Virus record (IMG/VR): IMGVR_UViG_2778261122_000007
Location: 1-29,245 of that record
Strand: one strand, 5' to 3'
Source: a virus
Lineage: Duplodnaviria; Heunggongvirae; Uroviricota; Caudoviricetes
DNA length: 29,245 bases
Shown piece after piece: positions 18,728 to 21,900 of the stretch. The first letter of the stretch is position 1; every line of letters starts with the position of its first letter. The notes beneath the pieces are model-generated. The model made no database searches. It saw only the letters and a list, made by a program, of their open reading frames with translations, and was not told the origin of the DNA. A program made the translations under genes and the position numbers.

Positions 18728-18777
18728 TCATTCAGGGGGCGCAGAAGTGCGCCCCTGTTCTGACAGGTGAAAGAATC

Positions 18778-18957
18778 ATGATCCTGAAACAAGATCTGAA
18801 ATGGTCACCGGACGGTATGCGTGTTGAGATCATTCGGGCCGGTGAGTATGAAGATAAAGAATTACCCGAACGGGTACGCGAAATTGCCACTGCAGCTGGG
18901 ATTGTCTCTGATAAGAGAACACCTGTTGCGCGGGGGGCTGATAAGTCTAAAAAATAG
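18778..18957 (+). CDS. small hypothetical protein (59 aa) between capsid and connector genes
   Basis: Not in the ORF track (shorter than 60 aa); ATG 18778 to TAG 18957, with AGGTGAAAG upstream as a possible Shine-Dalgarno. Confidence 0.35.
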   Translation: MILKQDLKWSPDGMRVEIIRAGEYEDKELPERVREIATAAGIVSDKRTPVARGADKSKK

Positions 18958-18977
18958 CATTCATAGAGGTTGCCCAA

Positions 18978-19283
18978 ATGATGCCCACTCTGGAAGAGCT
19001 TCGTGTTCAGTGCCGGATTGATGATGACAATGAACAGGAGAATGCTCTTCTTATGATGTATCTGGCTGCTGCCAGGGAAGAGGCTGAAAAGTTTTTAAAC
19101 CGGACGCTTTACGATGAAACTGTTTCTGAGCAGGATACGACCGGGCTTGTAATAACACCGCTGATAAAGCTGCGTCTTATGCAACTGGTTGGCTACTGGT
19201 ACGAGAACAGGGAAATGCAGGATGCAGTGCCTGATTTTTTCTATACCGGACTGCGGATGTATCGGTTTCATCCCGGAACATAG
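18978..19283 (+). CDS. head-tail connector (gp6-like DNA-packaging/head completion) protein
   Basis: 101 aa; position and size; recognised pattern (EELRVQCRID ... LLMMYLAAAREEAE). Confidence 0.75.
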   Translation: MMPTLEELRVQCRIDDDNEQENALLMMYLAAAREEAEKFLNRTLYDETVSEQDTTGLVITPLIKLRLMQLVGYWYENREMQDAVPDFFYTGLRMYRFHPGT

Positions 19284-19291
19284 GAGGATTC

Positions 19292-19630
19292 ATGCAGGCA
19301 GGAAGATTACGTGATCGTGTGGTTATTCTGAATGCCACCACCGTTCGGTCTCCATCAGGGCACCCTGTGGAAACAATGACGGAGGGGGCAACCATATGGG
19401 CAGAAGTTAAGGGGATCAGTGGCAGGGAGAGAATATCCGGAGGTGCAGAAACTGCTCAGGCTACAGTGAGGGTCTGGATGAGATTCCGGCGAGATGTGAC
19501 AGCAACTTCATGTCTGAAAGTGCTGACTGGTGCATTCAAAGGCGCGATTCTGAGTATAGACGGTCCGCCGATACCGGATGCTCGTGCTACCCGGCTTGAA
19601 ATACTCTGTTCTCAGAAGGGGAATGTGTGA
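19292..19630 (+). CDS. head closure / head-tail adaptor protein
   Basis: 112 aa; position; GGAG Shine-Dalgarno upstream. Confidence 0.7.
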   Translation: MQAGRLRDRVVILNATTVRSPSGHPVETMTEGATIWAEVKGISGRERISGGAETAQATVRVWMRFRRDVTATSCLKVLTGAFKGAILSIDGPPIPDARATRLEILCSQKGNV

Positions 19631-20076
19631 TGGATTTCAGTCTTGATTTTTCAGGTCTGGCGGATATTGCACGGGATCTGGAGACGCTCAGCAGGGCAGA
19701 AAACAATAAGGTTCTGCGCGATGCCACCCGTGCCGGTGCTGAAGTTATGCGGGATGCAGTTGTTGAACGTGCGCCGGAGCGAACCGGGAAACTGAAGAAA
19801 AATGTGGTTGTTCTCACTCAGCGTTCAAAGCGTCGCGGGGAAATTATCTCGGGTGTCCACATTCGAGGACGGAACCTGCGAACCGGAAACAGTGATAACA
19901 GCATGAAAGCCAGTGATCCCCGAAATGCGTTTTACTGGCGCTTTGTGGAGCTGGGAACGATAAACATGCCCGCGCATCCGTTCATTCGCCCGGCTTTCGA
20001 TACGACAGAGGAACTGGCTGCGCAGATTGCCATACAGCGAATGAATCAGGCTATTGATGAGGTCTTAAGTAAATGA
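19627..20076 (+). CDS. HK97 gp10-like tail completion / neck protein
   Basis: 149 aa; overlapping start; position before the major tail gene. Confidence 0.7.
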   Translation: MMDFSLDFSGLADIARDLETLSRAENNKVLRDATRAGAEVMRDAVVERAPERTGKLKKNVVVLTQRSKRRGEIISGVHIRGRNLRTGNSDNSMKASDPRNAFYWRFVELGTINMPAHPFIRPAFDTTEELAAQIAIQRMNQAIDEVLSK

Positions 20077-20417
20077 GAGAGGCCACACTGTATTCCCTGC
20101 TGTCTCAACTGGCCGGAGGACAGGTTTATCCTTATGTGGTCCCACTGACGGAGGGAAAGCCTGCGGTATCTCCGCCATGGCTGGTATTTTCTGTGGTGTC
20201 TGACACGGCGTCTGATGTGCTTGATGGTCAGGCTGAATCCAGAATTACCGTGCAGATCGATGTCTGGGCAACGGTGCCTGATGACGCAGATGATATCCGT
20301 GAACAGGCGCTTGATGCGGTAAGGGAACTTGCACCCTCCGTTATTTCTAAAACGCAGGGTTATGATCCTGATTCCCGTCTGAGCAGAGCCACGCTTGAAT
20401 TCCAGGTAATAGCCTGA
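20073..20417 (+). CDS. tail terminator-like protein (lambda U-equivalent position)
   Basis: 114 aa; overlapping start; position immediately before the major tail protein. Confidence 0.6.
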   Translation: MREATLYSLLSQLAGGQVYPYVVPLTEGKPAVSPPWLVFSVVSDTASDVLDGQAESRITVQIDVWATVPDDADDIREQALDAVRELAPSVISKTQGYDPDSRLSRATLEFQVIA

Positions 20418-20438
20418 GATCGTTAATGATTTTACCCA

Positions 20439-20461
20439 CCCGCCGCTGGCGGGTTTTTTTA
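20439..20461 (+). terminator. intrinsic terminator-like hairpin upstream of the major tail gene
   Basis: CCCGCC-GCT-GGCGGG followed by TTTTTTT. Confidence 0.65.
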
Positions 20462-20477
20462 TTTTCAGGAGACGAGT

Positions 20478-21182
20478 ATGTCCTCTAATTTTGAGCGTTC
20501 GCAACTGACGAAAATTATGATTTCGTCTGCACCGGTAACAGCAGAAACCCTGGATTCTGCCAGCTTTCTTGGGCTGAGCTGTACAATCAAAGAAGTGCAG
20601 TTTACCGCAGGACAAAAGCAGGATATTGATGTCACCACGCTGTGTTCTGTTGAGCAGGAAAATATTAACGGTCTTGGTGCCGCGTCAGAGATTTCCATGT
20701 CAGGCAACTTTTACCTCAATGCTGCCCAGAACGCGTTGCGTAGTGCCTATGACAATGACACCACGTATGGCTTTAAAGTTATTTTTCCGTCAGGTAACGG
20801 ATTTACCTTTATGGCAGAGGTGCGTCAGCATACCTGGTCTGCAGGAACCAATGGTGTTGTGGCTGCAACGTTTTCCCTGCGTCTGAAAGGTAAACCTGTG
20901 CTGACGACTGAGCCGCTAAAAGTGAAGGTCGATTTAAACAGCACGCTGCAGATTTCTGCCGGAGCGAAACTTGAAATGGTGGTTGAGGCTGCCGGTGGTG
21001 TGCCGCCTTATTCTTATGTCTGGAAGAAAGGTAGTTCTCCTGTTTCCGGACAGACGGCGGCAACGTTCAGTAAGGCATCAGCAGCATCCGGTGATGCCGG
21101 TGCGTATACCTGCGAGATTTCTGATTCAGCAAGCCCTGTTAACAAGGTGACCTCCATTTCCTGCACTGTAACCGTCAGTTAA
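20478..21182 (+). CDS. V: major tail protein with C-terminal Ig-like domain (lambda V-like)
   Basis: 234 aa; AGGAGACGAG Shine-Dalgarno upstream; C-terminal segment (GGVPPYSYVWKKGSSPVSGQTAATF...GAYTCEISD) resembles a Big_2/Ig-like domain. Confidence 0.85.
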   Translation: MSSNFERSQLTKIMISSAPVTAETLDSASFLGLSCTIKEVQFTAGQKQDIDVTTLCSVEQENINGLGAASEISMSGNFYLNAAQNALRSAYDNDTTYGFKVIFPSGNGFTFMAEVRQHTWSAGTNGVVAATFSLRLKGKPVLTTEPLKVKVDLNSTLQISAGAKLEMVVEAAGGVPPYSYVWKKGSSPVSGQTAATFSKASAASGDAGAYTCEISDSASPVNKVTSISCTVTVS

Positions 21183-21568
21183 TGAGGATGGATGTGATGA
21201 CTAAAAATATCCGTAATCTGGCACTGGCAACGATGTCGGGGTTTCGCCATAAAACCGTTGATGTGCCTGAATGGGAGGGAGCAACGGTTGTGTTACGGGA
21301 ACCTTCTGCAGAAGCCTGGTTGCGCTGGCAGGAGATCGTTAAAGCCAGGGAAGATGATACATCGCCATCTGTTGCAGAGCGTGCCCGCCGAAATCTGGAG
21401 GCGGACGTTGAACTGTTCATTGATGTTCTGTGTGATACCGGACTGCAACCTGTATTTTCAGAGGATGATCGTGAACAGGTGATTGCCGTGTATGGCCCGG
21501 TGCATGCGCGGCTTCTTCGGCAGTCTCTGGAACTGATCAGTGATGCCGGCGAGGTTAAAAAAAAGTAG
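21182..21568 (+). CDS. G: tail assembly chaperone G
   Basis: 128 aa; ends in EVKKK at an A-run slippery site; followed by a -1 frame ORF (T). Confidence 0.8.
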   Translation: MRMDVMTKNIRNLALATMSGFRHKTVDVPEWEGATVVLREPSAEAWLRWQEIVKAREDDTSPSVAERARRNLEADVELFIDVLCDTGLQPVFSEDDREQVIAVYGPVHARLLRQSLELISDAGEVKKK

Positions 21569-21870
21569 CGCTTCCGGGGATGCGTTTTCTGATGATGCTG
21601 GCGCTCAGGATGGGGCGCACATTGTCAGAGTTACGCCGGGAAATGTCCGCATCAGAAATCATGATGTGGGCAGAATTTGACAGGCTCAGCCCGCTGGGGG
21701 ACGAACGGGCTGATATCCGGGCTGCCCAGATTGTTTCAGCTGTTTACGGTGCGCAGGGGGTCAAAGTGCCACTGAATGATGCGCTTCTTCAGTGGGAGAA
21801 GGAGCAGACAGAAGGCGTATCAGATCCATTTGCCGGACTGGAAAACGCGCTTTTAATAGTGTCTCAGTGA
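21182..21870 (+). CDS. GT: G-T fusion tail assembly chaperone made by programmed -1 ribosomal frameshift at A_AAA_AAG (21559-21565)
   Basis: The T ORF (track 21580-21870) is in the -1 frame relative to G and open back through the slippery heptamer; the shifted reading gives ...EVKKK-VALPGMRFLMM... Confidence 0.65.
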
Positions 21871-21879
21871 GTCAACATA

Positions 21880-21900
21880 ACCGCTTCGGCGGTTTTTTTT
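21880..21900 (+). terminator. intrinsic terminator-like hairpin between G-T and the tape measure gene
   Basis: ACCGC-TTCG-GCGGT followed by a T8 run. Confidence 0.6.

Follow-up and report, generated by a model that had tools for sequence, protein, structure and literature searches.

Predicted terminators ahead of the tail tube and tape measure genes, and a post-capsid hairpin, in the HK97-type late operon of an Escherichia coli lambdoid prophage

The window considered here, that is, the whole 29,245-nucleotide stretch of IMG/VR virus record IMGVR_UViG_2778261122_000007, is an Escherichia coli lambdoid prophage whose head and tail module is of the HK97 type and which encodes a Q antiterminator. 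Its structural region shares 97.8% identity with Escherichia phage vB_EcoM-606R7 and 99.5% with a prophage of E. coli TUM14697. The structural operon is tightly packed, and its three largest intergenic gaps (50, 60 and 40-46 nucleotides (nt)) are the sites of three hairpins, designated H1, H2 and H3, which lie after the major capsid gene, ahead of the major tail tube gene and ahead of the tape measure gene, respectively. A sequence-only reading of the window had placed hairpins at these junctions, with a weak U tract at the first, seven Ts at the second and eight at the third, and direct reading of the letters confirms the positions, the gene neighbours and the three tails. Gene assignments are drawn from the annotation of relatives (including that of the Prokaryotic Genome Annotation Pipeline, PGAP), Pfam and Rfam; d denotes the terminator score described below.

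17522-18727, + strand: major capsid gene with the HK97 fold (PF05065, E = 3.5e-79; annotation of relatives)
18736-18755, + strand: H1, an 8-bp GC stem with a GAAG loop and a weak U tract (GGGGCGCA-GAAG-TGCGCCCC; -16.7 kcal/mol)
18778-18957, + strand: small open reading frame (ORF) of 59 amino acids between H1 and the connector gene (hypothetical protein in relatives)
20073-20417, + strand: tail completion gene (gp11/gp17-like; PF11367), the last gene ahead of H2
20439-20460, + strand: H2, CCCGCC-GCT-GGCGGG (20439-20453) followed by T7 (20454-20460); d = 50.9
20478-21182, + strand: major tail tube gene with a C-terminal Ig-like domain (Ig_2 and Phage_TTP_11 matches)
21182-21870, + strand: tail assembly chaperones G and G-T (PF06222 for G, PF06223 for T)
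21879-21900, + strand: H3, AACCGC-UUCG-GCGGTT (21879-21894) with a T8 run at 21893-21900; d = 22
21917-25129, + strand: tape measure gene (by alignment; GTG start at 21917 according to PGAP, with an in-frame ATG at 21911)

In this part of the + strand, the capsid gene is followed by the 59-codon ORF, a gp6-like connector gene, a head closure gene, a gp10-like gene, the tail completion gene and the tail tube gene, after which come chaperones G and G-T, the tape measure gene and then M, L, K, I and J. Pfam yields no match for the product of the small ORF at 18778-18957. The tail tube protein is 70.9% identical to HK97 gp12, and chaperone gene G carries at its end a -1 slippery heptamer (A AAA AAG, 21559-21565), its frame being the one needed for a G-T product ending at 21870.

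Putative intrinsic terminators were ranked with a score of the d'Aubenton-Carafa form, which adds a weighted T-tail to the hairpin energy per nucleotide. With coefficients after d'Aubenton-Carafa 1990, d is used as a ranking only, calibrated by shuffled sequences and by the opposite strand. The combined score was adopted because folding energy alone fails to single out H2 and H3: for 51-nt segments, the energy z-scores are -3.9 at H1, -1.3 at H2 and -0.4 at H3, so that the stability expected of the structures is strong for H1 and unremarkable for the other two. On the + strand the scan yields six sites, and on the - strand a single one. Of the former, five (6936, 9488, 10285, 20439 and 21881), all intergenic, exceed d = 20, whereas 189 dinucleotide shuffles give a mean of 0.34 matches per strand and none with d > 20. 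The significance of H2 and H3 therefore stems from the combination of hairpin and T-run rather than from folding energy. Terminator prediction with free-energy scoring, which had been proposed as a check, thus bears out H2 and H3 but not H1, for which d is about 1.4.

The first three of the five high-scoring sites correspond to further hairpins that had been noted near 6934, 9486 and 10284. A common (A)CCCGC...GCGGG(T)n form had been ascribed to the whole group; a CCGC...GCGG core (12 matches where 4.0 are expected) does link five of the sites, the exception being the sixth, H1, whose stem is GGGGCGC/GCGCCCC. Such a shared core is compatible with a generic terminator consensus. The 12-mer CCGCTTCGGCGG is common to two of these sites, and across the group the flanking sequences are unrelated. 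Rfam returns no match at its gathering score over positions 18600-22000, the best being isrK at 20.7 bits against a threshold of 50. Furthermore, promoter-like sites are not enriched in the late region (9 against 13.6 expected), which rules out that the segments are separate operons with internal promoters, that is, independent transcription units. A further + strand hairpin at 17171-17190 (GGCCGGTT-CATT-AACCGGCC followed by TTTCTATT) lies inside the protease gene, has a weak score (d = 6.3) and is probably due to chance.

Relatives were surveyed in two sets, namely a diverse set of 48 loci on one-genome-per-species contigs from Enterobacterales, Pseudomonas and Burkholderia (38-80% protein identity) and a close-relative set of 80 IMG/VR loci (L002-L081). 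Over 390 kb of the diverse loci, terminators are predicted 129 times on the + strand versus 19 times on the - strand, and nearly all of the + strand sites belong to four junctions, one following the capsid gene, one ahead of the tail tube gene, one a short way past it and one ahead of the tape measure gene. The strand bias and the conservation described below support the view that these elements are under selection and not products of chance.

H2 forms six to seven pairs closed by a 3-nt loop and leaves 17 nt between its end and the major tail start codon, its T-run leading into the Shine-Dalgarno sequence AGGAG. A hairpin with a T-run precedes the tail tube gene in 46 of the 48 diverse loci and in all seven reference phages (HK97, an Stx2a phage, a Klebsiella phage, Proteus Pm34, ECP1, a Burkholderia phage and HK022), among which the element is kept even where tail tube protein identity falls to 38%. 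Throughout the 54 terminator-bearing loci (the 46 diverse ones, the window and the seven reference phages), which comprise 44 distinct hairpin sequences, the first T of the tail stands 20-27 nt ahead of the start codon; in 44 of 47 loci, 52-67 nt separate the tail completion gene from the tail tube gene. On a MAFFT alignment, column-wise covariation is hampered by the register shifts that differing loop lengths (3, 4 or 5 nt) cause, and compensatory changes were therefore counted with RNAalifold, which detects them in four of five consensus pairs among 40 distinct pre-tail-tube sequences (for example, G-C in 26 and A-U in 8). Together, these data show the pre-tail-tube terminator to be the most conserved non-coding element of the HK97-type module, and its position is characteristic of that module from Enterobacterales to Burkholderia.

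Several minor features of these sites were also recorded. Across the pre-tail-tube and pre-tape-measure hairpins of L082-L135, ATG(G) very often comes next after the T-run (TTTTTTTATGG is an example), and the U tract thereby enters a UAUGGAG-type Shine-Dalgarno sequence. By eye, the roughly 10-14 nt on the 5' side of the listed pre-tail-tube stems look rich in C and A and poor in G. Among the close relatives, T-runs at H2 and H3 range from T6 to T9, and one locus carries a tandem duplication of the H2 terminator region.

H3 consists of four to six pairs capped by a UUCG loop and lies between chaperone T and the tape measure gene. At the equivalent junction, a terminator is found 17-28 nt ahead of the tape measure start codon in 28 of the 43 diverse loci where T and the tape measure gene can both be placed. 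It is present in all 17 loci with a gap of more than 200 nt, gaps that are read as putative inserts at the HK97 moron position, and in 11 of the 26 with a gap of 35 nt or less; its retention at these insert-free sites marks it as a resident feature of the junction and not merely as moron cargo. According to PMC3594210, morons bring a promoter and a terminator of their own, through which they are expressed from repressed prophages. An AT-rich insert of about 400 bp separates T from the terminator in 14 of the 80 close relatives (L024, L053 and 12 others), and all 14 possess the terminator. Two kinds of insert occur, one encoding a membrane protein with a zinc ribbon (PF13248) and the other a lipoprotein-like ORF for which Pfam gives no match. 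In the ten relatives with the PF13248 insert, the terminator is the H3 of the window, differing at most in the length of its T-run. The gap of the window itself (40-46 nt) contains neither an ORF nor a promoter, and inserts are confined to relatives, while H3 stands where the terminator at the downstream end of such a cassette would be. An insert 5' of the equivalent terminator is present in HK97 and the Klebsiella phage and absent from the Stx2a phage, as it is from the window. From these sequence comparisons, H3 is a predicted resident terminator that forms the right-hand limit of a known moron slot, one left unoccupied in the window.

H1 differs in kind, as the sequence 3' of its stem is TGTTCT (T-score 2.07), which gives the borderline d noted above and lacks the U run that directly follows the stem of an intrinsic terminator. 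One A-U to G-C compensatory change occurs in an H1 variant among the close relatives. A post-capsid hairpin of -11.7 kcal/mol or lower is present in all 38 scorable diverse loci, compared with 34% of random 93-nt windows, and is accompanied by a T-rich tail in 28 of these loci and, as in the prophage studied here, by none in the other 10. That the T-run is lost in 10 of 38 loci but the hairpin never fits a stabilising role for hairpins of this type. Intercistronic stabiliser hairpins, such as the repetitive extragenic palindromic (REP) elements in malEFG and the hairpins of the puf operon, block 3' exonucleases. Like them, H1 is a strong hairpin without a U tract that directly follows a gene whose product is needed in excess; unlike REP elements, it does not belong to a repeated sequence family. 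H1 is therefore likely to be a terminator-derived hairpin that is strong but not a canonical terminator, and its presumed function would be stabilisation.

The three hairpins had also been assigned to a late operon under the control of Q, which is consistent with the genes and sites that lie upstream of the structural genes.

6936-6958, + strand: terminator at the 3' end of the hok/sok toxin locus; d = 30.7
8725-9420, + strand: late antiterminator gene Q (PF06323, E = 5.6e-91)
9404-9432, + strand: promoter-like TTGCAA-17-TATATT just after Q
9488-9510, + strand: first terminator downstream of Q and the promoter-like site (tR'-type); d = 21.7 on the + strand and 17.5 on the - strand
10285-10308, + strand: terminator between the tRNA cluster and the holin gene; d = 51.4

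The + strand order of this half is hok/sok, ydfU, rusA, Q, four tRNA genes, the holin/lysis genes, an HNH endonuclease gene, terminase, portal and protease. Q, the promoter-like site and the 9488-9510 terminator thus precede the tRNA, holin and structural genes, and by this layout the late region is a Q-antiterminated lambdoid late operon, with the activity of Q being predicted. Terminator-type elements do lie inside it downstream of Q, with the exception of the 6936 hairpin, which belongs to the hok locus as its 3' end and lies outside the late operon. The promoter-like site and the 9488 terminator (9404-9510, + strand) would together yield a leader RNA of about 70 nt of the tR' type, for which weak isrK- and isrJ-like matches are seen; the 9488 hairpin is flanked by A-rich and T-rich tracts and scores as a terminator on the - strand too. 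A full-length but sub-threshold Rfam match to STnc100 (10132-10312, + strand; 35.4 bits against a gathering score of 47) ends in the 10285 terminator just 5' of the holin gene and may represent a leader or a small RNA in the slot that follows the late promoter, the place in which prophages of enterohaemorrhagic E. coli (EHEC) encode small RNAs (PMC4104026). The main text of that study, on Hfq-bound small RNAs, places such RNAs at this slot only, and a keyword search of its supplements for tail, tape measure, capsid and head gives no gene-level entries.

Elements of this kind are already on record, since the GenBank entry of HK97 (AF069529.1) annotates a "putative terminator" at each of the junctions occupied by H1, H2 and H3, namely at 5192-5213 after gene 5, at 6692-6719 before gene 12 and at 8398-8422 before the tape measure gene. 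The design of hairpin plus T-run is common to both phages, whereas the stem sequences differ, the post-capsid hairpin of HK97 has a TTTT tail that H1 lacks, and HK97 carries moron gene 15 upstream of its third terminator where the slot of the window is empty. HK97 has further annotated putative terminators, which follow the portal gene and gene 12 and precede gene I. With respect to gene 15, the moron prototype, H3 stands where the slot that separates T from the tape measure gene has its terminator, and the two AT-rich insert kinds of the close relatives end at H3 or its equivalent. The three hairpins are thus an ordinary, already described feature of HK97-type phages.

More distant systems show partial parallels. 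In lambda, a long late operon is likewise preceded by Q, a promoter-like site and, as first terminator, tR'; a hairpin with T7 stands directly before capsid gene E, and a weak-U hairpin that resembles H1 directly after it. The Q of the window is assigned to PF06323, and lambda has neither a gap nor a hairpin ahead of V or H. T7 possesses the T-phi terminator after its capsid gene. In SPP1, a predicted terminator directly follows the capsid gene and is itself followed by a small gene (gene 14), as in the window, and a second one follows the tail tube gene; unlike the window, SPP1 lacks Q, lysogeny and a terminator ahead of the tail tube gene, and the sequences are unrelated. SPP1 is a virulent phage (PMC6316719). 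Hairpins around the most abundant structural genes are common in siphophages.

The interpretation that we somewhat favour, judging from sequence and comparative evidence, is that H2 and H3 are genuine Rho-independent terminators and H1 a terminator-derived stabiliser, all three being conserved positional elements of HK97-type operons that would act as conditional barriers overridden by Q-modified polymerase. The GC hairpin abutting a U tract at H2 and H3 would release unmodified RNA polymerase, whereas polymerase modified by Q at the late promoter would read through; since the former stops and the latter does not, the hairpins would constitute conditional barriers. Q-modified polymerase is expected to ignore such terminators, as with the Q proteins of lambda, 82 and 21. 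In a lysogen, as for any polymerase initiating within the late region at moron or spurious promoters, transcription would be halted ahead of the tail tube gene at H2 and ahead of the tape measure and tip genes at H3. During lytic growth, hairpins forming behind the polymerase could block exonucleases at 3' ends, which would be the main role of H1, and residual termination might produce a mild 5'-to-3' step-down of transcript level. In keeping with this interpretation, H1, H2 and H3 are all non-coding, intergenic and co-oriented with the + strand operon, and the retention of a canonical U tract points to termination, as simple RNA stabilisation needs none.

Several points weigh against conditional termination. 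In the literature searched, on HK97, lambdoid late operons, long-read phage transcriptomes and Salmonella ST64B, no transcript evidence at these junctions came up. Comparable post-capsid and post-tail terminators exist in SPP1, which is virulent, so that insulation of the lysogen is not a universal reason for them. In addition, the association with morons explains only part of the pattern, as 11 of 26 insert-free sites keep the pre-tape-measure terminator and H2 has no moron. Lastly, the H3 hairpin is short, its 4-pair core reaching -5.4 kcal/mol, and neither H2 nor H3 is significant by folding energy alone.

Setting the relative amounts of head and tail products, the role raised by the sequence-only reading, is a possible but less probable explanation. 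Partial termination at each hairpin during lytic growth would generate nested mRNAs, in which capsid would outnumber the connectors and tail tube, and these in turn the tape measure and tip. As virion proteins, capsid and tail tube are high-copy whereas tape measure and tip are low-copy, so that the polarity suits H1, which would keep capsid above the following genes, and H3, which would keep the tail tube and chaperones above the tape measure and tip. Post-capsid and post-tail-tube terminators recur in SPP1 without Q or lysogeny, the hairpins of lambda flank E on both sides, and about 13 of the 48 diverse loci carry a + strand terminator 400-600 nt past the start codon of the tail tube gene, which is where the end of a short tube gene would be expected (compare ECP1). 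However, H2, the most conserved of the three, sits 3' of low-copy connector genes and 5' of the abundant tail tube gene, and attenuation there would lower the wrong product; by analogy, Q-type antitermination would be expected to suppress these terminators, and H1 has no usable U tract. Dosage tuning is accordingly plausible for H1 and H3 and fits H2 poorly. The same upstream position would be natural if H2, like similar elements ahead of other genes, were chiefly part of the expression signal of the gene that follows, by insulating the ribosome-binding site from structure upstream, by providing a protective 5' hairpin after RNA processing or by offering the U-run as a landing site for ribosomal protein S1 that raises translation of the tail tube gene. 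This is an unlikely account overall, although the fixed register, the T-run that meets the Shine-Dalgarno sequence and the hairpin with T7 directly upstream of E, the most abundant gene of lambda, agree with it. The same layout, at 17-28 nt, stands ahead of the low-copy tape measure gene and is therefore not specific to highly expressed genes; a short gap that holds both a terminator and a ribosome-binding site would give a fixed register anyway, and no RNase site or 5' end is known.

That the hairpins mark the boundaries of exchanged modules had also been suggested. Breakpoint mapping among the close relatives upholds this for H3 only, where the right-hand homology break of moron inserts falls at about 21880, the start of the hairpin, in 10 of the 14 insert-bearing loci. 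The main mosaic joint between head and tail genes lies at about 19280 (37 loci), where there is no hairpin, and H1 and H2 are essentially never breakpoints; their role as module boundaries is thereby ruled out. A broader version, in which all three are recombination landmarks of exchangeable modules with no important function at the RNA level, is quite improbable, as the strand bias and the retained U tracts point to an RNA function. Chance inverted repeats beside T-rich spacers would agree with the unremarkable folding-energy z-scores of H2 and H3, but this explanation is effectively refuted by the shuffles, by the strand and intergenic bias and by conservation with compensatory change across genera, and retains hardly any probability.

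The one mildly open point is the reason for the strict conservation of the pre-tail-tube terminator, which is near-universal, in fixed register and of the wrong polarity for attenuation. H2 might be a dual-purpose module of terminator and ribosome-binding site, a conjecture to which we give little weight. If it were true, H2 could, speculatively, insulate the tail tube gene tightly from unprogrammed transcription in lysogens; tail tube and capsid proteins trigger some abortive-infection defences. Alternatively, it could supply a 5' hairpin and a U-rich platform that drive high expression after RNA processing. The hairpins otherwise offer little that is new for discovery, because they match features of HK97 and the habit of siphophages of placing terminators around capsid and tail genes. 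They can nevertheless serve as reliable annotation landmarks in HK97-type prophages, at the post-capsid, pre-tail-tube and pre-tape-measure positions, and H3 marks a moron insertion slot in which to look for cargo genes.

Other features of the window are of a different nature. In the PGAP annotation of the 99.5%-identical E. coli genome, tail genes I and J are separated by a gene of the Cu/Zn superoxide dismutase family (sodC; 27555-28082, - strand), which is cargo of the moron type at a further junction known for insertions. Within the tape measure gene, positions 23350-23480 show a homology break or an indel in most close relatives. The DicF small RNA is encoded at 175-226 on the - strand, and the hok/sok toxin-antitoxin locus is complete (6542-6866, + strand).

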